64,000 bases of DNA. Source: a virus. The translations under genes were made by a program, and so were the position numbers. Positions 4,235 through 41,704 of the stretch are shown here, one piece after another. Under the pieces are notes generated by a model. It saw only the letters and a program-made list of their open reading frames with translations. It was not told the DNA's origin and searched no databases. The stretch's first letter is position 1. Every line of letters starts with the position of its first letter. The DNA lies in the IMG/VR virus record IMGVR_UViG_3300025012_000047, positions 1 through 64,000 of that record, one strand, 5' to 3'.

Positions 4235-4609
4235 TCAACCTTTCAAATAATCTAATGTAGACACTAGACCATTATACGAGCAATCAATACTATCATGATT
4301 TAGAATCAATTTAGCTAAGTATCTGTGATTCCCGTCAATGATTTGTACATTTCCGCAACAATTGTCATCAATTGTTATAGGAGTAATTAGGTCAGGATTA
4401 TTGACAAAATGCTTGATACGCCCTAAATGCCACTCCCTAGACTGCTCTGAAAAGTCTTCAAACATGGTTTTTATTTCTTCAACTTCATCAATTCCATTTC
4501 TAGCTTCAGACAAAGTAATAGTCGATCCTATCCAATAACACTCTTCACCTACGATTCCTTTTAATACGTTAAGGTTTATGGAGTCCATTGGATTTGGTTC
4601 GCTACTCAT
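4235..4609 (-). CDS. ParB/Srx N-terminal-like domain protein
   Basis: PITI...IIDGNHRY motif. Confidence 0.7.
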   Translation of the reverse strand: MSSEPNPMDSINLNVLKGIVGEECYWIGSTITLSEARNGIDEVEEIKTMFEDFSEQSREWHLGRIKHFVNNPDLITPITIDDNCCGNVQIIDGNHRYLAKLILNHDSIDCSYNGLVSTLDYLKG

Positions 4610-27652: not shown

Positions 27653-28654
27653 TTGGGAGTAAAATTACAGTCTACAGATATATATAAACAGAAAGTTTTT
27701 GCAAAGCGTGGTGATAAGGTTGAGATATTGAGTGAATATCTAGGAGGTACAGAACCAATAGATTTTGTTTATCATTGTGAAAAACATGGCGATACATATA
27801 AGACTTTAAATGCTAAGAATGTATTAGCAAGTTGTTTTCAACCTTGTAAACAATGTGATATTGAATTGAAAAGTTCGAAGGGCAAAAGTAAAAACATGAA
27901 TAAAGATTATCAATATAATAGACTAAAACAATTTTGTGAATCTAAAGGAGGTAAATTAATAAGTACAGTATGGACTATTGCTAAAGATACATATGAAATT
28001 CATTGCGGAAATCCTGAACATCCGAATTTCTTTAGCAATGCAGACGGAGTATTGAATAGTGCAGAAAATTGGTGTCCGTATTGCTGTGGTAGAAAAGGTA
28101 ACTTTGAGAAAGAAATAACAGATATCATAAATAGTAAAAATGGCATATTGCTTACTCCTTATAAATTATCTACAGAACATGTATCTATTAAATGTAATAT
28201 ACATAATTATATTTGGCCTATGATGCCATTGAACATAAAGAAAGGTAGGTGGTGTCCGGTATGTAATTTGCCATATTCAGAAAAAGTTCCTTATGACTAT
28301 CTTGTAGATAATTATCCGAGTTACAATATTAGAGTACAATATACTTTTGATGATTTGATGGGAGAAAACGGAGAACATTTAAAATATGATTTAGGAATAT
28401 TAGATGATACTGATAAATTGTTAGGCATAGTAGAAATAGATGACGATGAACATAGATACAATCATACACAACCAAGAAGAGTAAAAGCAAGAGAAAGAGA
28501 TAAAACAAAGGATAAATATTGTAAAGATAACAATATACCATTGTTTAGACTTGAATATTATAATGGTAGGAAAATGTTCAAAGATCGTGACTGGTACTAT
28601 AATTACATACATAAAAATTTGAATGAGTTCCTTAATTCTATAATTAATAAATAA
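27653..28654 (+). CDS. Homing-endonuclease-like protein (zinc ribbons plus PD-(D/E)xK/Vsr-like nuclease)
   Basis: WCPYC/WCPVC repeats; LKYDLGI...VEIDDDEH...DKTKDKYC. Confidence 0.75.
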   Translation: MGVKLQSTDIYKQKVFAKRGDKVEILSEYLGGTEPIDFVYHCEKHGDTYKTLNAKNVLASCFQPCKQCDIELKSSKGKSKNMNKDYQYNRLKQFCESKGGKLISTVWTIAKDTYEIHCGNPEHPNFFSNADGVLNSAENWCPYCCGRKGNFEKEITDIINSKNGILLTPYKLSTEHVSIKCNIHNYIWPMMPLNIKKGRWCPVCNLPYSEKVPYDYLVDNYPSYNIRVQYTFDDLMGENGEHLKYDLGILDDTDKLLGIVEIDDDEHRYNHTQPRRVKARERDKTKDKYCKDNNIPLFRLEYYNGRKMFKDRDWYYNYIHKNLNEFLNSIINK

Positions 28655-28670: not shown

Positions 28671-31298
28671 GTGGAAAATATTAGTTTAAATAAACAAATA
28701 CATATTTATAGTGTCGATACGAGTTGTTTTTATAATAAAAGAGAAATGAAGATACATAATAAATTAAACGAATTATATAGGTATAGAAATGAATTAAATT
28801 TATTAAAAACAAAATTTAAAGACAATGATATTGAAGCAAAAGAATTAGATGAATATATTGCTGATATAAATAGATCAATTAAATACAATAAAGAAGGAAT
28901 ATATTCTATTTTTAGTCAACATAAAGGAATTAGAAAGTTAAATACTAATTCCTTTAATGAAAAAAATATAATCTCAGTATTTGATTCTGTGCTAACTAGA
29001 ACTATACAAATACCAGAAAATAATTTATCAACCGATTTTATAATTGTTCAAACATATTTTTTTGATGTGATTGAGGATATAATCCTTGATGGGTTCATGT
29101 ATAAAAAAGATAAATATGTTTGTCTTACAGCTAGTGCAGGACAAATACGAACCAAAAAGACAGTTTTTGTTAGAGAAAGGGTTTTAAATAAATATCAGAA
29201 TACCCTTATGTGTGGATTAAATATTAATAAGATTAATGAATTTGGTGGAGTAAATATTAATAAATATTTAGCGTACTTAGCTCTAAGCAATAGTGCAACA
29301 GATGCTTGGGAAGATTTTGATATTACTAAATCAATAGTTGTTGAAGATTTTGAAACCAACATTAGCGGTTTAGTAGATATAATTAATGATAAAACATATA
29401 CAATAGTAAGAGATGTAATAGCCGTACCAGTTACTCATACTGATGGGTGTGGAATTTGTTTACCAAAAGTAAGTAAGAAGAACATGATGGTCAGATTGCC
29501 ATGGATAAAAGGGTTAATTTCTCCATTTTCTTATGATATTTTTATAAAAGAAGCAAATAAATTAAATCCAGAGAAAAATCATGGAATTGTAAAAGATATT
29601 TACAATAAAGAACACGATATTATAAAAGAAGGGATAGAAATTATTTTTACAAAAAGTCAATTTAAGATGTGGAAATATTATAAGAGTTGGGAAGATTATA
29701 TACGTTATTATAATTTATATAATTGTCAAGCAGGAAAATGTAATGAGGAGGAAGACGAATTTTCAGATGCGAAAATAAATTACCAAATGTTACAAACTCT
29801 TATTGATATGTCTGATGAGGAATTAAAAACTTTAAGTGTAAAAACAATATATAATATACGCAATATTGGTAAGGATAGAAAGACAATGCTTAAGGTGTTA
29901 GGCGTAAAAAAATCTAATTTAAAGAAAAACTATTTCCAACAAGCTTTAGATGTTTATCCTGAATTATTAAATGATACATATAGCAAACAAATTTTAAGAG
30001 AAACTAAAAAGAGTATGGTTAAAGAGGCCAGAGCAGGGAAACTTGAGTTGATGTCTTCATATACATTTATTATTCCTGATTTATATGCTTTTTGTGAGAA
30101 TTTATTTTTAGGAGAAAATAAACCAAGGGGTTTACTAGGAGATGGAGAAGTACATTGCAAAATATATAAGGGGGTAGATAAATTAGATTGTTTGAGAAGT
30201 CCACATTTATTTAGAGAACATGCTGTACGAAATAATGTGATAGATGAAGCAAAAAACAAATGGTTTATCACAAATGGATTATATACTAGTTGCCATGATT
30301 TAATAAGTAAAATTTTACAATTTGACGTAGATGGGGATAAAAGTCTTGTCGTAGCTGATAATAATTTAGTTGAAATATCTGAAAGAAACATGGAAGGTAT
30401 AGTTCCTTTGTATTATAAGATGAAAAAAGCAGAAGCAGAATTAATAACAAATGAAAGTATATATAATGGTTTAAAAACTGCTTATACAGGTGGAAATATT
30501 GGAATGAAAAGTAATGATGTCACAAAAATATGGAATAGTGAAAATGTCAATTCTGATGCCATAGAAGCAATTAAATTATTGTGTATGGAAAATAACTTTA
30601 CAATAGATTATGCAAAAACTTTGTATAAACCAAACAGACCGAAAAACAAAAAAGAATTAATAACCAAATACACAAAGTCAAAAACACCACATTTTTTTAT
30701 TTATGCTAAAGACAAAATAAAGGATAAAGTTGAGAAAAAGAACAATAGTGTTGTGAATAGATTGGAAAAAATAATACCAAATCCAAATATTAAATTTTCT
30801 TCAACTAATATTGGGAAATTTAATTATAAGATGCTTTTAAAGAATAGGAGTATTGAATTAGATAAAACGATAATAGACAAATATATTGAATTAGATTTGA
30901 AAAAGCATTTTATAATTAATAAAAATGGTAATGATGGGAAGATTGGAAATATTTTATATTTGTATAAACTTATCAGATATGAAATTTTAAAAATTAATGA
31001 TGATATTGATTATGTTACAGATGTTCTTGTAGAATATTTATACAAGCACAAGGAATCTAATTATAAAACAACGCTATGGGAGTGTTTTGGAGACATTATA
31101 GTTAATAATTTGAAAAACAATATCGGTCATACGATTATTTGTGACATTTGTGGAAAAAGAATACGTCCATCTAATCTAACTCATAAATATTGCAAGGAAT
31201 GTGCAAAGGAAATTCATCAAGAACAAGAAAAGAATAATGCTAAATTGAGAATGAGGAAGATGAGAGAGAAAAATGTTACGCAAACGGAAAATCTCTAA
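28671..31298 (+). CDS. yonO: YonO-like single-subunit (two-barrel) DNA-dependent RNA polymerase
   Basis: SAGQIRTKK, HTDGCG, RLPWIKG, RSPHLFREH and catalytic FDVDGD; SPbeta synteny; true start may be ATT 28680. Confidence 0.9.
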   Translation: MENISLNKQIHIYSVDTSCFYNKREMKIHNKLNELYRYRNELNLLKTKFKDNDIEAKELDEYIADINRSIKYNKEGIYSIFSQHKGIRKLNTNSFNEKNIISVFDSVLTRTIQIPENNLSTDFIIVQTYFFDVIEDIILDGFMYKKDKYVCLTASAGQIRTKKTVFVRERVLNKYQNTLMCGLNINKINEFGGVNINKYLAYLALSNSATDAWEDFDITKSIVVEDFETNISGLVDIINDKTYTIVRDVIAVPVTHTDGCGICLPKVSKKNMMVRLPWIKGLISPFSYDIFIKEANKLNPEKNHGIVKDIYNKEHDIIKEGIEIIFTKSQFKMWKYYKSWEDYIRYYNLYNCQAGKCNEEEDEFSDAKINYQMLQTLIDMSDEELKTLSVKTIYNIRNIGKDRKTMLKVLGVKKSNLKKNYFQQALDVYPELLNDTYSKQILRETKKSMVKEARAGKLELMSSYTFIIPDLYAFCENLFLGENKPRGLLGDGEVHCKIYKGVDKLDCLRSPHLFREHAVRNNVIDEAKNKWFITNGLYTSCHDLISKILQFDVDGDKSLVVADNNLVEISERNMEGIVPLYYKMKKAEAELITNESIYNGLKTAYTGGNIGMKSNDVTKIWNSENVNSDAIEAIKLLCMENNFTIDYAKTLYKPNRPKNKKELITKYTKSKTPHFFIYAKDKIKDKVEKKNNSVVNRLEKIIPNPNIKFSSTNIGKFNYKMLLKNRSIELDKTIIDKYIELDLKKHFIINKNGNDGKIGNILYLYKLIRYEILKINDDIDYVTDVLVEYLYKHKESNYKTTLWECFGDIIVNNLKNNIGHTIICDICGKRIRPSNLTHKYCKECAKEIHQEQEKNNAKLRMRKMREKNVTQTENL

Positions 31299-31856: not shown

Positions 31857-33149
31857 TTGCCCGATAAACCATATATAAATTCAAAAGTATTTGTTGATAC
31901 TAACGTCTTGTTAAAACCAAGTTTTCACCCAGATAATTATCTTCAAGTGGCAACAAGTATAACTACAATTGAAGAAATTGATAATCTCAAAACTAAACCT
32001 GATATTGGTTATTATGCTAGAGATGCAACAAAGAAAATTAAAAATGCTACAAATGTAGATGTTGTATTAGATTATGATTTCTCGTTTGAAAATAGATTTC
32101 TGCAAAATAAGAATGATAACTGGATATTAGGTTTTGCTTACCAAGTATGGAAAAATGATAATGAATTTGTATTTCTTACAGATGATTTTTGTTTGTACAT
32201 TAAGGCAAAAGCATTTAATATTCCATGTGATTTGTTTGAGTTTAAGGAAATTGAAGATGATTATTATAAAGGATATAGAGAAGTAATATTATCAGACAAT
32301 GAATTAGCTTTATTCTATGAAAATCCATCTAATTGTTTTGATTTATTAAATAATGAATATCTCATTATAAAAAATGAAGATGGTGAAATAATTGATAAAC
32401 AAAGATGGAATGGAACTGAGTTTTTTGATTTAGTTGATATTACAATTATGCCTAAAATTCCATTCTCTTATAAAAGTAAGAAACCTAAATATGAAAAGTT
32501 TGAAAAACAACCTGATTCTTTTTCTTTTACTGGAAAATTGAAACCTAGAAATTTACAACAAGAAATAGCTTTAGATTTATTTCAGAATAAACTAATTACC
32601 TGTAAGGCAATTTTCGGAAAATATGGTTCAGGCAAAGACCTGATTATGGCTACCAATGCTATTTCTATGGTAAAACAGGGGATTTTTGATAAAATAGTAT
32701 TTGTGAGAAATATGTATGAAGTTTCCAATACAAAATCAATCGGATATCTTAAAGGTTCTGAATTTGAGAAAATGTTGCCATATGTCATGCCCTTAGCAGA
32801 TCATGTTGGAGGAATAGAAGGTTTAATCAAACTAATTGATGAAGGAATAATTGAACTTCAACAATTAGCAACTATTAGAGGAAGAGATTTAAAACGTAGT
32901 CTAGTGTATGTTACAGAAGGTGAAAATCTTACCAAACAACATATACAATTACTTCTTGGTAGACTTGCAGAAGGTTCTGCATTATGGATTAATGGGGATT
33001 TTAAACAAGTTGATGATACTTTATTTGAGAGAAATTCAGGATTAAAGAAAATGATAAATAGTTTAAAAGGCAATGAATTGTTTGGATGTATAGAATTATG
33101 CACCACAGAGAGAAGTAAAACTGCGCAATTAGCAGATTTGTTAGATTAA
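31857..33149 (+). CDS. phoH: PIN-PhoH family protein
   Basis: VDTNVLL (PIN), GKYGSGK, IGYLKG, IRGRDL, EGENLT, GDFKQVD. Confidence 0.9.
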   Translation: MPDKPYINSKVFVDTNVLLKPSFHPDNYLQVATSITTIEEIDNLKTKPDIGYYARDATKKIKNATNVDVVLDYDFSFENRFLQNKNDNWILGFAYQVWKNDNEFVFLTDDFCLYIKAKAFNIPCDLFEFKEIEDDYYKGYREVILSDNELALFYENPSNCFDLLNNEYLIIKNEDGEIIDKQRWNGTEFFDLVDITIMPKIPFSYKSKKPKYEKFEKQPDSFSFTGKLKPRNLQQEIALDLFQNKLITCKAIFGKYGSGKDLIMATNAISMVKQGIFDKIVFVRNMYEVSNTKSIGYLKGSEFEKMLPYVMPLADHVGGIEGLIKLIDEGIIELQQLATIRGRDLKRSLVYVTEGENLTKQHIQLLLGRLAEGSALWINGDFKQVDDTLFERNSGLKKMINSLKGNELFGCIELCTTERSKTAQLADLLD

Positions 33150-33282
33150 TAAATAATAATATCACAGATACTCCTTCAGACTGTTTCTCTGTGTGGAGTT
33201 GGGAATAGTATGTTTCACTATTTTCTCTTTTATATTAATTCAAGGAGGGAAGATTATTTAATGGATTTTGGTTAGCGGAAAT

Positions 33283-33337
33283 TAAACAATACTTAAAATA
33301 TAATATAAACAATACTTAAAATATAATATAAACAATA
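33283..33337. repeat. 23-bp tandem repeat, about 2.4 copies
   Basis: TAAACAATACTTAAAATATAATA x2 plus TAAACAATA. Confidence 0.8.
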
Positions 33338-33404
33338 ATAAAAACACAGGTCTGGCATCAAAGATGTGCAGATACTATTAAAAAAATAAAAGGGGATAAT
33401 AATT

Positions 33405-33683
33405 TTGAATAAAATGGAATTAATTTCGGCAGTAGCAATTAAGGGTGAAATGTCCAAAAAGGCAGCAGAGCAAGCAATTGTAGCAGTATTTGAAGTAATT
33501 GAGGAAACTCTTGCACGAGGAGAAAAAGTATCATTGGTGAATTTCGGAACATTTGAAGTAAAAGATCGAGCACAACGACAAGGAAGAAATCCTAAAACTC
33601 AAGAAGTTATTACTATTCCTGCAACAAAATCTCCAGCATTTAAGGCAGGTAAAGGTTTGAAGGATAAAATCAAGGGAATCTAA
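33405..33683 (+). CDS. hup: HU-family DNA-binding protein (YonN-like)
   Basis: MNKMELI...FGTFEV...GRNPKT...PAFKAGKGLKD. Confidence 0.95.
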   Translation: MNKMELISAVAIKGEMSKKAAEQAIVAVFEVIEETLARGEKVSLVNFGTFEVKDRAQRQGRNPKTQEVITIPATKSPAFKAGKGLKDKIKGI

Positions 33684-33767
33684 AAATAATCAATTTTGTG
33701 CTACTACAGTAAGTCCTTATATTTAATAGATATCTTTAAATAAAGGCAAAAGTAGCACACTCACAAT

Positions 33768-33831
33768 AAAGTCGGAATGGAGACTTTAAACCCATCTCCA
33801 TAAGTCGGGATGAAGACCTAAAACTCATCTT
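33768..33831 (+). ncRNA. Two tandem H-type pseudoknot units (33-nt period)
   Basis: AAGTCGGAATGGAGACTTTAAACCCATCT / AAGTCGGGATGAAGACCTAAAACTCATCT with a compensatory change. Confidence 0.45.
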
Positions 33832-33866
33832 AGTAAAAATAAAATAAAAAGGTGGCAAACAAATAT

Positions 33867-34067
33867 ATGTCAGTAAAAACAGAAAAAGTAGAGAGTGTTA
33901 AATTTAGTGCAAAAGGAATTCTAACAATCGTCAATACAACTGGTTTCTCTATAGAAGATGAGAAAACAGGAGAAGTCGAAATATTGTCTATGGATGACAT
34001 TAAAACATTAATTGGTAAATCTGTAACAATTGCATTTGCAAATAAAGAAAGTATTGAAGAAGATTAG
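33867..34067 (+). CDS. YonK-like protein
   Basis: Size, KG...IE.EK.GE...GKSVTI pattern and position after HU as in SPbeta. Confidence 0.6.
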   Translation: MSVKTEKVESVKFSAKGILTIVNTTGFSIEDEKTGEVEILSMDDIKTLIGKSVTIAFANKESIEED

Positions 34068-34149
34068 TTTCTAATAGATATTAATTTCTTTATAATAAAT
34101 ATTACAGAGTAAGATAAAAAGTGTTATGACTAGAAGGTTTTGATGCCTA

Positions 34150-34387
34150 ATTATATTAATTAATAATAACATAATCCATCTCACTTGACTACTATCTAAC
34201 TTAAAGAAATGGTGGGACATCGTTACCTTTAGGATTGAGAGTCGAGTTTTATAAAAATAGCATAATGGATTTTATGATAAGAGATGGAATTTTGTTTAAT
34301 ATTATTATTAATTTTATGAAGGAATTGTAGAAGATTTATCTTCCTCGAATTATAACTAATTCGGTTTCAAGTGCAATTTCTTCATAA
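34150..34387 (+). ncRNA. Putative structured RNA(s) upstream of the 227-aa gene
   Basis: AATTAATAATAACATAATCCATCTC pairs with GAGATGGAATTTTGTT...TTATTATTAATT; ATGAAGGAATTGTA/TGCAATTTCTTCAT closes a two-hairpin junction. Confidence 0.4.
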
Positions 34388-34440
34388 TAAAAAATAATCT
34401 ATCAAACAAATAAATACAAATTGAAAGAAGGAAATAATAA

Positions 34441-35124
34441 ATGTCTAATTCACAAAACACTAATACATCAATCTCACTAAAGGAATCATTTAGAATCCTA
34501 AATATCCTTGATCAACATACATCTTCTCTTCTATCTTATATTTCAAACAAATCAAATTCATTAAAAGTGGAAGAAATCCATTTAAAGTCAAAGGTAACAG
34601 AAAATCCAGATGAAACAATCGACCAAACTACAGAACGTCAATACAATTGTTCTGTAACTGATATTTCATTTCTAATTTCTCAATTAATAGATGAGAAACT
34701 TGTCTTATCCCTCGCTATAGAAAAAGCTAAAAAGAATCTATTTCTTGATTGGAAAGAAAATGGTGAGAACTTAATAACATTAGATACTGGAATTTTATAT
34801 GCTAAAAAGAGTAGAGAATTATCCAATAGTCTTAAATATTTATTGGATTTAAAACCATCGGAAGCAAAGTCATTTGGGAAAGACTATATTTTCAATATGG
34901 AGAAAAATCAGGTTGAATATAAATATCCAATTGAGAAAAAGACATCTTTAGATTTTGATAGAAATGAGATTAATTCTTTATACAAGCAACTTTTAAATCG
35001 CTCAAATACTTTATCAACTCAGATAGAGGGAGCAATGTTAAAAGAAATCGTAGAGTTTGCACCTATTTATGACATATTATCATCTACATCGGAAATTGTT
35101 GAAGAATATTTATCTAATAATTAA
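34441..35124 (+). CDS. Conserved helical hypothetical protein (possibly related to DIP1984/septicolysin-like proteins)
   Basis: SLKESFR...HLKSK...EKLVLSLAIEKAK...YIFNMEKNQVEY...DFDRNE; family recalled from memory, not searched. Confidence 0.75.
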   Translation: MSNSQNTNTSISLKESFRILNILDQHTSSLLSYISNKSNSLKVEEIHLKSKVTENPDETIDQTTERQYNCSVTDISFLISQLIDEKLVLSLAIEKAKKNLFLDWKENGENLITLDTGILYAKKSRELSNSLKYLLDLKPSEAKSFGKDYIFNMEKNQVEYKYPIEKKTSLDFDRNEINSLYKQLLNRSNTLSTQIEGAMLKEIVEFAPIYDILSSTSEIVEEYLSNN

Positions 35125-35197
35125 TATTTATTTAACAATAATTAACTATGACAATAATAAGGGGATTACCTAACCACAGTCTCCTTATTAAAACAAA

Positions 35198-35622
35198 CTA
35201 ACCAGAAGCAAAGCAAGATATAGACTATTTATCCAAACATCTGAAATTAGATGTTAAATCTTATTTCAAAATTAAAGCTAAAATAATGCAAGATTGTGTA
35301 GATTTACTTTACATAACTGGAAACATGAAGAACAAGCAAGTTTTACTTTGATAGTAAAATAATAAATCGCTAATCATTTTCGTAAAACGTAAAATCATTA
35401 TTCACAAATTCGATATGACATTATTCATTATAAAGCAAATACGATAATCGTTTCGCTAATCACTCTATGAATAAATTTTAGGATTAAATTCTAAAGAACA
35501 AATAATAAAGAAATTATAGTATTTTAAAAATACTCTCTTAGAAATAAGAGGATAGTGATTTTAATAATAAATACAACTCAATTACTCATAAAATAGTCCT
35601 ATTTTGCTTGCTTTTTGGTTAG
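35198..35622 (+). ncRNA. ~425-nt putative structured RNA closed by a 35-bp terminal stem
   Basis: CTAACCAGAAGCAAAGCAAGATATAGACTATTTAT (35198-35232) complements ATAAAATAGTCCTATTTTGCTTGCTTTTTGGTTAG (35588-35622); six internal hairpins including a GAAA tetraloop. Confidence 0.6.
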
Positions 35623-35728
35623 ATATATTTTCAATTAATGGATACATTGAAGAAATACGAAAAGTTATGACTCAATGTTGAAATAGTAGGAGAACTACTA
35701 AAAGTTATTTTCCTGCAAGAATTCAAAT

Positions 35729-36013
35729 AAGGCAACTGCAATAACACATAGTGGTTGCCTTCATACATTACGACAAACAGGGAGCAAATGACCGTCTCCC
35801 TTACATATCAATATGGAAGTAGTTTCGTAAACTGACTTCATCGAGGCACATGGTAAATATCCTCTAATAATACTGATTAGTCCTTTATGGACTTCACGTT
35901 GACTACGTGGTAACTGATTTGGCATTACGCCAGTGGTTTGCTCATTTATCCATTTAAAAAATGAGTATATTATACTAAATAGGTTTTGCCGTATAACCTA
36001 GATAAAAACGGCA
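35729..36013 (+). ncRNA. GC-enriched multi-hairpin region ending in a pseudoknot (putative ncRNA)
   Basis: About eight consecutive stems, e.g. AAGGCAAC/GTTGCCTT, GGGAG/CTCCC, AGTCC/GGACT, CACGT/ACGTG; TAGGTT/AACCTA with TGCCGT/ACGGCA. Confidence 0.4.
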
Positions 36014-36105
36014 TTAACAATCAAAGAAAAACTGTATTTTATTGGAGGAGTCGATATTCTCTTACTGTAGAGTCGATGAAATTTAAAAAGGAGATGGTTA
36101 GATTA

Positions 36106-36789
36106 TTGTTAAATACTAAAAATAACATTGGCATAATTAAAGTTGATGATAATCACAAAAATATTGTTTATGAAATCAAAGATAATGGATGTCATGAAAT
36201 AATAAGTCATGCTTCAAGTGGCAATAGTGGATATTTCAAAATTAAAATCAATGGTAAGGCGTATGATATACATAGATGGTATTATATTAAAATACATCCT
36301 GAAATTGATATGACAAATTTGGATGTCAGACATAAATGTGATAATAGACAATGTATTAATCCAGATCATTTAGAACATGGTACTAGAAAAGAAAATGTTA
36401 ATGATATGTTGATAAGAAATAGACAATATTCCGAGTTGTCTGAACAAGAAGTTTTTGACATTATTAATAAATATAACACAGGAATTTATAATTATGCTGA
36501 TTTATCTAAAATTTATGGAGTAGTAAGTAACACAATCAGACATATTTGTATGGGGAAAACTTGGAAGCATTTAACAGGAATTAAATTGGATGATTATCAA
36601 TCAATACATAATAAATCAGAAAAACAATCTGACGAAAAATATATTTATTGGGATAAGATTAATTATAGATGGAGGGTAGTTATCTTAGTGAATGGAAATA
36701 AAATAAATATAGGACGATTTAAAGATTTGAGAGAAGCAATTACAGAAAGAGATAAAGGTTTGCTTAGATATAACAATATCATATTATAA
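36106..36789 (+). CDS. HNH homing endonuclease with HTH and AP2-like domain
   Basis: VRHKCDNRQCINPDHLEHGTRKENVND; YIYWDK...WRV...IGRFKD; RBS favours TTG 36106. Confidence 0.85.
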   Translation: MLNTKNNIGIIKVDDNHKNIVYEIKDNGCHEIISHASSGNSGYFKIKINGKAYDIHRWYYIKIHPEIDMTNLDVRHKCDNRQCINPDHLEHGTRKENVNDMLIRNRQYSELSEQEVFDIINKYNTGIYNYADLSKIYGVVSNTIRHICMGKTWKHLTGIKLDDYQSIHNKSEKQSDEKYIYWDKINYRWRVVILVNGNKINIGRFKDLREAITERDKGLLRYNNIIL

Positions 36790-36824
36790 TTTATTCTCTA
36801 CAAGGAGGATTAAACAATAATAAA

Positions 36825-36965
36825 ATGAAAGAAACTAATATTATAGATTCAATTAATGAAGATACATTATGCCCTGTATGCTTCAAAAATAGGTTCTGGT
36901 TAAAGTTTTATTGTGGTAAGACAATATTATGGTGTGCTGATTGTGGTTATTTTATAATAATTTGA
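36825..36965 (+). CDS. 46-aa zinc-finger protein
   Basis: Not in track; CPVC...CADC. Confidence 0.45.
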   Translation: MKETNIIDSINEDTLCPVCFKNRFWLKFYCGKTILWCADCGYFIII

Positions 36966-37014
36966 TTTACAATATATAAATAATATTTTATAAATAACTA
37001 TGAGGAGGAATATA

Positions 37015-37767
37015 ATGCTAGAAATAAATCAAGTATATAATTCTGATTGCATTAAAGAAAATGGCATGTGTTTGATAGATGATAAGAGTATTGACTTAAT
37101 CCTCTGTGACCTACCATATGGAACAACTGCAAGAAATAAATGGGATCATATTATTCCTCCTGATAAATTGTGGGAGCAATATGAGAGAATAATTAAAGAT
37201 AATGGAGCAATAGCTCTAACAGCACAAACTCCATTTGATAAGGTGTTAGGTGTTAGTAATTTAAAATTACTCAGATATGAATGGATTTGGGAAAAAACAT
37301 CTGCAACAGGACATCTTAATGCTAAGAAAATGCCAATGAAAGCTCATGAAAATATTTTAGTATTCTATAAGAAACTTCCTACATATAATCCACAGAAGAC
37401 ATTTGGGCATGAAAGAAAAGTAAGTAAAGCAGAACATAAAGTTAATTGTGTAATGACATCAAATTATAATGAACATGGATTGACTACTTATGATAGTACA
37501 GAGAGATATCCTAGAAGTGTTTTGCTGTTTCCAACTGATAAGCAAAAAGAGGCAATTCACCCGACACAAAAACCTATAGCATTATTTGAATATCTAATAA
37601 AAACTTATACAAATGAAAATGATTTAGTATTAGATAATTGCATGGGGTCATTTACAACTGCTGTAGCATGTGAAAATATTAATAGAAATTACATAGGGTT
37701 TGAGAATGACGAAAAGTATTATGAGTTAGGAATGAAGAGGTTAGAGGAATTACATAAATTAAACTAA
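37015..37767 (+). CDS. N4-C/N6-A DNA methyltransferase (beta class)
   Basis: ILCDLPYG, HPTQKP, VLDNCMGS. Confidence 0.9.
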   Translation: MLEINQVYNSDCIKENGMCLIDDKSIDLILCDLPYGTTARNKWDHIIPPDKLWEQYERIIKDNGAIALTAQTPFDKVLGVSNLKLLRYEWIWEKTSATGHLNAKKMPMKAHENILVFYKKLPTYNPQKTFGHERKVSKAEHKVNCVMTSNYNEHGLTTYDSTERYPRSVLLFPTDKQKEAIHPTQKPIALFEYLIKTYTNENDLVLDNCMGSFTTAVACENINRNYIGFENDEKYYELGMKRLEELHKLN

Positions 37768-40774: not shown

Positions 40775-41704
40775 ATAAAGGTTATGTTTATACTAAAATG
40801 AGTGATGAGTTCGAAGTGAAAGTAGATGATTTATCTAATGGTTCTCATGTATTAGTTGAAGTGAGATGTGATGGTTGTATGGGGTATAGATACTTTTGGT
40901 AAAGATTTTCTTGATAAATATTGGGATTATAATAAAAACACAGTTAATCCTTGGGAGATATCAAGATGTGCAAACAAACCAAAAGTATGGATTAAGTGCC
41001 AAGAAAAAGATTATCATGGAAGTTATCCAATAATTTGTAATGGGTTTATAAATAAAGTTAGATGCCCTTATTGCCATAGTAGAGGTAGTGTACATAAGAT
41101 ACATAAATTAGATAGTTTAGGATCATTATTTTTAAAATCTGCTGCAGTTTGGTCTAATAAAAATGAAAAAACACCTTTTGAATATTCCCCTTTTAGCATT
41201 AAAGAAGTTTGGTGGAAGTGTCCTGATGGTAAACACGAAGATTATAAAAGAAAAATATCTGACTCAAATACTTACAAATTTAGATGTCCTGAATGTCAAT
41301 ATTCTAAAGGAGAAGATAGAATAGGAATACATTTAATAAATAATAATTGGAAGAAAATCATACAAGAAGAGTATGAAAAATTATTAAAAATAAATGAAGA
41401 TAATTATTATATTCCACAAAAAACTTTTAATAGATTATTAGGTTTAGGAGGAAAATTATTATCTTATGATTTTTATATCCCTAAATTAAATTTACTTATA
41501 GAATATCAAGGAGACCAGCATGAAAAACCTATAGATTTCAAAGGTAAAGGTAAAAAATATGCAGAGGAACAATTTGAAATTCAAAAAGAACATGACAAAA
41601 GAAAGAAAGAATATGCATTGCAAAACGGATATAATTTTCTAGAAATTTGGTATTGGGAATTTGATAATATTGAAGAGATTATAAATAATTATATTAATGT
41701 ATAA
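40744..41704 (+). pseudogene. Zinc-ribbon PD-(D/E)xK endonuclease with deleted and frameshifted N-terminus
   Basis: Orphan N-terminal frame WSSSNKKWYVNKGY...EVRCDGC joins out of frame to ORF 40868-41704 (SYDFYIP...IEYQGDQH). Confidence 0.6.

Follow-up and report, generated by a model that had tools for sequence, protein, structure and literature searches.

Within a 64,000-nucleotide (nt) stretch of phage DNA (positions 1 to 64,000 of IMG/VR record IMGVR_UViG_3300025012_000047; hereafter the window), we identified a gene for a 227-residue protein, p227 (34441-35124, plus strand, ATG start), followed by a non-coding element of approximately 470 nt that begins 30 nt past the stop codon (35155-35622, plus strand). 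Comparative analysis shows that the element belongs to a structured plus-strand RNA family that is obligately linked to a single protein family, that of p227. The gene-RNA pair matches no catalogued family and probably represents the two halves of an undescribed protein-RNA machine.

The linkage of gene and RNA was evident from the gene side and from the RNA side. Relatives of p227 were found in 10 and then in 31 viral contigs. A degenerate pattern derived from the 5′ arm of the element's closing stem, P1, retrieved 20 contigs with one copy each, corresponding to 13 distinct variants, and in all 13 close variants the p227 gene lies directly upstream of the RNA. A pattern for the family pseudoknot described below, used alone, matched 57 viral contigs once each, many of them 90-215 kb long; two of these carry less than 140 nt of upstream sequence and were not testable, and in each of the 55 testable contigs a p227-family gene, on the strand of the motif, stops 57-74 nt upstream of it. 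Among distant genome loci, the motif is found downstream of the gene in about 29 of 38. A first-pass annotation, made from the letters of the window alone, had tied the element to the upstream gene, and all three sets of loci bear this out. At the sequence level, the RNA is also the most conserved stretch of the neighbourhood, keeping 74-84% nt identity even where p227 has fallen to 42-46% and the neighbouring PhoH, HU, and helicase proteins to 21-68%. The element is single copy both in the 99-kb record from which the window is drawn and in each of the 20 related contigs. We therefore rejected a miniature inverted-repeat transposable element (MITE) or transposon remnant, given one copy per genome that is always behind the same gene; the dispersed, gene-unlinked MITE that the annotation had named as the observation that would overturn its proposal was not what we found.

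The pattern of mismatches in the closing stem distinguishes RNA from DNA and sets the strand. P1 arms were aligned as DNA, with every mismatch scored equally. Mismatches compatible with G.U pairing on the plus strand outnumbered those compatible on the minus strand by 54 to 14 in 31 loci and by 128 to 16 in 30 independently found gut-phage elements; as the loci are related to one another, p-values for these counts serve only as a guide, though the direction is clear. In addition, 31 of 32 sequences retain one particular G.U pair of the pseudoknot. Because of this asymmetry and the kept pair, a DNA-level inverted repeat is ruled out and the strand is set: these comparisons show that the element is selected as an RNA on the plus strand, the same strand as the gene. 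The earlier proposal of a structured RNA in this orientation is thereby upheld, as it also is by folding energy, which departs from that of shuffled sequences with a z-score of -7.0 on the plus strand versus -3.9 on the minus strand. A small hidden open reading frame (ORF) was rejected, with no ORF longer than 29 amino acids inside 35125-35640.

The ORF, closing stem, five hairpins, and ORF-free tract reported in the first-pass annotation are all present in the window. In the centroid fold, P1 comprises 22 base pairs (bp; 35198-35220/35600-35622) followed by a further 8 bp (35223-35230/35591-35598), giving 30 pairs, several of them G.U. The 5′ arm (35198-35232, plus strand) starts 73 nt past the stop codon; the 3′ arm occupies 35588-35622 on the same strand. 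Description of this stem as nearly perfect is accurate for RNA but not for DNA, since only 78% of the first 23 nt are Watson-Crick matches and the remainder is mostly G.U. The centroid fold also recovers the five annotated hairpins, namely 35237-35254, 35340-35360, 35477-35495, 35518-35534, and 35535-35550.

We used an 11-sequence alignment of the close clade (A1) to compare pairing between helices. P1, its preceding hairpin P0, and six internal hairpins, all on the plus strand, are paired in 78-97% of cells. P0, P1, and the last hairpin also show compensatory changes. P1 is 92% paired in the close clade. The hairpin just inside it, P2 (35237-35254), is 97% paired and invariant in the close clade, and corresponds to stem B of an H-type pseudoknot that characterizes the wider family. 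Stem A of this pseudoknot is not recognisable in the window clade. Because the clade keeps only stem B, the window RNA is, judging from the alignments, a simplified and divergent member of a larger family. The remaining hairpins comprise 35292-35317 (10 bp, 83% paired), 35340-35360 (8 bp, 86.5% paired, and kept with a different stem sequence in the related loci L010 and L014), 35477-35495 (8 bp, 78% paired, with a stem retained there in variants), and two adjacent hairpins at 35518-35534 and 35535-35550 (82% and 88% paired, respectively, the second with three pairs changed on both sides). P0 itself (35155-35190) has 13 bp and is paired in 88% of cells, four of its pairs having changed on both sides. 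A heptamer in its loop is the same as the first 7 nt of P1 and complements the RNA's 3′ end. Since this loop word and the 3′-end word change together in three clades or variants, P0 is counted as part of the RNA, and there are hints of an alternative pairing.

The wider family extends well beyond the groundwater phages. Distant relatives of p227 (25-60% identity) were recovered in viral contigs as well as in 39 contigs of bacterial genomes, the latter mainly from rumen and gut Clostridia and including an isolate of Intestinibacter bartlettii, such that the module ranges across groundwater phages, gut and rumen phages of approximately 90-230 kb, and Clostridia genomes. The first-pass annotation had suggested inspecting the regions downstream of homologues; these keep both the closing stem and a folded element, and show covariation in the pseudoknot. 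The distant elements, which are 392-537 nt long in gut phages, share a common plan of a closing stem, a conserved motif just inside it, and a G-poor middle with CG-punctuated short words. Their closing stems contain 24-51 bp, with arm sequences that differ wholly from locus to locus while pairing is kept. The H-type pseudoknot lies just inside P1. In an alignment of 32 distinct sequences (A4), 93.9% of its cells are paired, versus 31-42% when the partner strand is slid. One stem A pair occurs as GC in 13 sequences, CG in 12, and AU in 6, all six stem B pairs change on both sides, and none of 500 shuffles reached the observed covariation score or paired share. Close to where the core ends, a conserved box was also detected in 8 of 30 elements, compared to 0.3% of shuffles.

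The layout of these distant loci bears on how the RNA is made. In gut phages, P1 starts 15-28 nt after the stop codon; intrinsic-terminator-like hairpins with T runs follow on the plus strand in several genome loci, and tRNA genes lie directly downstream in four (L102, L107, L118, and L046). Because of this short gap, the terminator-like hairpins, and the tRNA genes that follow, gene and RNA would most simply form one transcription unit. The commonest neighbour is a homologue of the YonO-type single-subunit RNA polymerase, located upstream on the same strand in at least 22 of 85 distinct loci and ending a median of 751 nt upstream; this count is a lower bound given that many flanks are short. 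Other recurring neighbours encode HU, PhoH, a beta-CASP metallo-beta-lactamase (RNase J-like), phosphoesterases, and ClpP.

The centre of the RNA behaves differently from its helices. Helices drawn through the central ~100 nt by single-sequence folding are paired in only 48-66% of cells; because of this low share, the core appears to be conserved in sequence but not in pairing, and is probably unpaired. This G-poor core (35365-35462, plus strand) is flanked by a 10-nt direct repeat (D7) and can be parsed into approximately 13 quasi-heptameric units, each on a conserved C. There are 17 C residues in 35363-35462 and, when three adjacent pairs are omitted, their spacing is 5-10 nt with a median of 7. 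Across 17 clade sequences, both the C (p = 0.009) and the base at position +4 (p < 0.001) are conserved, and the bases at +1 and +2 tend to be more variable (p about 0.1), mostly through transitions. Autocorrelation across 35360-35470 gave a sole peak at lag 7 (z = 2.7, one of 20 lags), and the family-wide signal at this lag is small and consistent (mean z = 0.54, t = 3.2). Tandem Repeats Finder reported no array in the core, and the conservation track of the core had no fixed-lag periodicity. The periodicity of about 7 nt is hence real but weak, and the core is quasi-periodic rather than even. Of the approximately 14 evenly spaced units described in the first-pass annotation, the loose quasi-heptameric pattern stands but the even spacing does not. 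A search of the window for contiguous antisense targets of the core gave only chance-level matches of 12-16 nt. A natural deletion variant was also observed: at 4277-4570 of locus L003, the element keeps P0, P1, and the first hairpin, with some 300 nt including the whole core gone.

The protein gene belongs to a large family with a recognisable predicted fold but no match to a sequence family. Searches returned 520 cluster representatives at E ≤ 1e-3 and 277 at 1e-10, and p227 itself, an acidic protein, had no match in Pfam, PHROGs, NCBIfam, PADLOC, or the sequences of the Protein Data Bank (PDB). The AlphaFold2 model (pLDDT 95) contains four long helices and long beta hairpins. Comparison of this model with known structures yielded one clear structural relative, PDB entry 3KDQ, which comes from Corynebacterium diphtheriae and has no known function. 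VIA-align superposed the model on 150 of 152 residues of 3kdq_A (Z 11.7, rmsd 2.6 Å), with the next hit at Z 8.5, and Foldseek matched the same entry with a probability of 1.00 and a TM-score of 0.72 on the target. Sequence identity is 13% and p227 has approximately 75 additional residues. The model thus predicts that p227 has the whole-domain fold of 3KDQ, which we take to be DIP1984, of Pfam DUF6847 (PF20935). The first-pass annotation had suggested a link to DIP1984, and this link is recovered at the level of fold but not of sequence: the PF20935 profile found nothing in the genome at E ≤ 10, and the family was absent both from Pfam scans of 34 p227 family members and from the NCBIfam scan. 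Residues conserved across the p227 family include Lys, Arg, His, Asn, Gln, and two Tyr, which could form a specific pocket.

Among relatives of the window, p227 occurs as two alleles, with 84-90% and 42-46% identity. These alleles sit between conserved flanks: upstream, the leader plus the first ~50 coding bases (86-96% nt identity), and downstream, the RNA (window 34300-35124, compared with L002-L011). This arrangement looks like cassette exchange through recombination at the conserved flanks. The leader (34300-34440, plus strand) is a putative promoter and 5′ untranslated region (UTR); it has 86-96% nt identity to L006, L009, and L010, where the flanking proteins are far more diverged, and lacks a strong sigma-70 consensus.

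We compared both partners with known systems. A scan of window positions 33000-37500 against Rfam 15 gave no match at E ≤ 1, and the element likewise had no match at E ≤ 1 in 10 divergent loci or at gathering score in 10 further loci. The same scans detected neighbouring tRNA, HEARO, skipping-rope, and drum RNAs, indicating that the searches were working. Membership of a known RNA family, including GOLLD, ROOL, 6S, Y RNA, RAGATH-27, and HEARO, was therefore rejected for want of a covariance-model match. The pair is also not described in papers on septicolysin/DIP1984 and on GOLLD/ROOL or in a 2026 survey of non-coding space. A retron non-coding RNA was rejected as well: the neighbours encode PhoH, HU, an HNH endonuclease, a DNA methylase, and a helicase, with no reverse transcriptase among the annotated conserved neighbour clusters.

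Several known systems share individual traits with the module. Ro60 (Rsr) associates with bacterial Y RNAs, which are encoded beside their protein partner, also in phages, and whose ends form a long stem around a structured module. The end-clamping stem, structured module, and adjacent protein gene are all seen here, but p227 is not a TROVE/vWA ring and no Y RNA model matched. TRAP and HutP, which act on the trp and hut leaders of Bacillus, are oligomers that read evenly spaced short RNA words, with HutP sites in a 7-nt register. Unlike those short cis-regulatory leaders with strict triplet words, the present RNA is large, closed, and behind the gene, and its units are loose. In the RNase III stalks of ribosomal RNAs, a long 5′/3′ duplex that is conserved in pairing rather than sequence flanks a functional RNA within a longer transcript. 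The P1 duplex likewise keeps pairing and not sequence, though its cleavage is only putative and the stem may remain in the mature RNA.

Two sets of phage RNAs are closer in setting. GOLLD and ROOL are large, ornate RNAs of phages and prophages with unknown function, borne by Firmicutes phages and frequently adjacent to tRNA genes (Weinberg et al. 2017, PMC5737381; cryo-EM, bioRxiv 10.1101/2024.12.08.627333). The present RNA resembles them in being phage-borne, several hundred nt long, and multi-helical, with a pseudoknot and with tRNA genes nearby in relatives (not in the window). In contrast, neither covariance model matches it, and it always lies behind one protein family, whereas GOLLD and ROOL are without a dedicated protein gene. 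The second is VIPR, in which the small phage RAMP protein Vipr binds a ~100-nt vrRNA of strict 5-nt GGY/NN repeats with hypervariable NN (bioRxiv 10.64898/2026.04.26.720920 and.720927). The vrRNA consists of 9-16 five-nucleotide repeats plus a pseudoknotted constant part, and Vipr belongs to the RAMP proteins, with an RRM core, G-loop, and thumb (same preprints). According to the companion preprint, Vipr protomers polymerise along the RNA, and by lining up on the short repeats this small phage protein recognises DNA (bioRxiv 10.64898/2026.04.26.720920 and.720927). Both systems combine a small phage protein with an adjacent non-coding RNA that has a row of short units, conserved and variable positions, and a pseudoknot, and VIPR is the best precedent for how such a row beside a small phage protein gene can work. 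Membership of VIPR was nonetheless rejected, since protein fold, RNA size, unit length, and composition all differ. The predicted fold of p227 is a 3KDQ-like assembly of helical and beta hairpins, and the RNA behind its gene is ~470 nt long and G-poor with 5-10-nt units, forms no tandem array, and has a core that is conserved between phages without hypervariable positions. No RAMP or Cas chain occurs among the top structural matches of p227, an absence from the list that is still compatible with distant kinship.

Taking these results together, we hold, with somewhat more belief than doubt, that the locus is a two-part plus-strand phage module in which the p227 gene and the ~470-nt RNA are co-transcribed, the RNA is clamped by P1, and it assembles with the protein on its core. 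Gene and RNA would be made as one transcript. The P1 duplex would then clamp the ends and serve as a stalk at which processing frees the RNA, much as RNase III stalks do for ribosomal RNA, and several copies of p227 would sit on the quasi-heptameric units of the core to give a ribonucleoprotein. Binding of the RNA by p227 is inferred. The frequent presence of a YonO-type polymerase gene and of tRNA genes nearby suggests that the particle may act in the expression of phage genes or in conflict with other genetic elements. A more specific version, which we regard as improbable, draws on the analogy with VIPR: p227 would polymerise on the C-anchored quasi-heptads, exposing the two more variable positions of every unit, and the particle would read another nucleic acid by a gapped, non-contiguous code. 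This would be the logic of VIPR on an unrelated fold and in a 7-nt register, possibly directed at transcription by the neighbouring YonO-type polymerase or at competing elements.

Several observations weigh against our main reading of a two-part module. The periodicity of the core is weak, and the L003 variant indicates that the core is dispensable for keeping the locus. The p227 family is acidic (median pI 5.1, net charge -7), which is unusual for an RNA-coating protein. Furthermore, p227 switches alleles while the RNA stays unchanged, a pattern that fits loosely coupled modules equally as well as a conserved binding surface. Neither a sigma-70 promoter nor a terminator consensus is present in the window itself. 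The public runs in which the locus was found are groundwater and sediment DNA metagenomes only. Finally, 9 of the 38 distant genome loci lack the pseudoknot motif by pattern; in one of these (L080), the closing stem and a core of CG words were seen by eye.

Some of the same observations would suit an RNA that acts alone, like GOLLD or ROOL (for example by self-assembly), with the upstream gene just co-expressed or functionally related and not physically bound. The large size of the RNA, its many helices, its phage and prophage setting, and the adjoining tRNA genes of relatives are all in keeping with this possibility, as are the acidity of p227 and its allele changes beside a conserved RNA. 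We give it appreciable but minority credence, given that adjacency is perfect and distance fixed over very wide divergence, which is tighter than usual for co-expression alone, and that neither the GOLLD nor the ROOL model matches. It is unlikely that the element is instead a cis-acting 3′ UTR that stabilises or regulates p227 mRNA, whether by blocking 3′ exonucleases or as a translation-coupled switch at P1. Such a switch could draw on the position of P1, which at 15-28 nt past the stop codon would have its base touched by a terminating ribosome, and on the 3′ heptamer for which P0, through its loop, competes with the 5′ arm of P1. Yet 400-540 nt with a conserved pseudoknot, a conserved unpaired core, and conserved boxes goes far beyond the needs of mRNA protection, and conservation is higher in the RNA than in the gene that it would be serving.

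The frequent presence of the polymerase gene raises the question of whether the RNA acts on an RNA polymerase, either the phage YonO-type or the host enzyme, as a decoy, a regulator, or a template, in the manner of 6S RNA. The YonO homologue is the commonest neighbour (also present in the window at 28671-31298), and a long closing stem surrounds an open region. We think this quite unlikely: Rfam gave no 6S match, the open region forms a multi-hairpin domain rather than a two-sided bubble, p227 is undetectable in SPbeta even though that phage has YonO, and many loci have flanks too short to judge the YonO link. A toxin with an RNA antitoxin (type III-like) or an anti-defence decoy, the former an option offered in the first-pass annotation, would account for the tight linkage of a protein gene and a pseudoknotted RNA in phages and for the fast allele turnover of p227. 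This option fared poorly, and we rate it as very unlikely: gene order is opposite to that of ToxIN-type loci, there is no tandem repeat array and no match to a defence family in the PADLOC models, and the fold differs from those of known type III toxins. Specifically, a ToxIN-like system was rejected because there is no tandem array of ~36-nt repeats and the RNA lies downstream of the gene. A DNA-level element, such as an iteron replication origin, packaging site, or MITE, might be suspected from the AT-richness, terminal inverted repeat, short repeated words, and proximity to replication genes. We give this scarcely any credence in view of the single copy, the strongly strand-asymmetric G.U pattern, the covarying pseudoknot with its conserved G.U pair, and an orientation relative to the gene that is always the same.

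The window is part of a 99-kb phage record that is estimated to be approximately half complete. The gene at 28671-31298 matches phrog_8308 and encodes a homologue of the YonO-type polymerase of SPbeta, with 61% identity to a protein of Clostridium phage D-1873 and approximately 50% to the YonO proteins of SPbeta-like phages. It is followed in order by genes for PIN-PhoH, HU, and the 227-residue protein, the long non-coding stretch, and genes for an HNH endonuclease, a DNA methylase, and a helicase. There is no tRNA gene in the 64-kb window. The HNH endonuclease gene (35986-36789) is missing in all relatives of the locus; because their alignments skip from ~36046 to 36782, it is, on this comparison, a free-standing homing-type insertion. 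Two more HNH genes are located at 27653-28654 and 40868-41704.

Among isolated phages, neither a DNA search with the intergenic region nor a tblastn search with p227 gave a match, and the SPbeta-like phage Goe11 has no copy of the module. Clostridium phage D-1873 (L159, 12247-14118) has the same layout of YonO, HU, PhoH, a tRNA, a 212-residue gene, and a 1.2-kb unannotated gap; its 212-residue protein was not detected by the p227 family profile and its gap contains no pseudoknot motif. Two further non-coding features follow the RNA in the window. A small hairpin at 35987-36013, single copy in the window, has a 17-nt loop that is conserved and a stem of 5 bp that varies in sequence between relatives, with compensation. 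It occurs at the same position, after the RNA and before the next gene, in L002, L003, L004, L010, L037, L041, and L042. Its possible roles include those of a phage promoter, a processing site, or a terminator-like signal. The intervening segment (35631-35985) is GC-richer, non-coding on the plus strand, partly common to L007, L011, L037, and L043, and without an Rfam match. In relatives, matches to HEARO, skipping-rope, and drum RNAs and to an HDV-like ribozyme, along with many tRNA genes, lie within a few kb of the module (L045 4545-4775; L046 4531-4770 and 6497-6625; L080 372-440; L131 14432-14544), such that module-bearing relatives keep an island of non-coding RNAs here.

If our preferred reading of a co-transcribed gene and RNA that assemble into a ribonucleoprotein is correct, these phages and Clostridia would carry a widespread protein-RNA module that is absent from the catalogues and papers searched. 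The operon is self-contained at ~1.2 kb and suited to expression in a laboratory host, making the proposal directly testable. With VIPR as a precedent, it is a concrete possibility that a second repeat-reading particle, unrelated to the first, exists. The module would also provide the first functional handle on the orphan DIP1984-like fold and would add a new class to the small set of large structured RNAs from phages.

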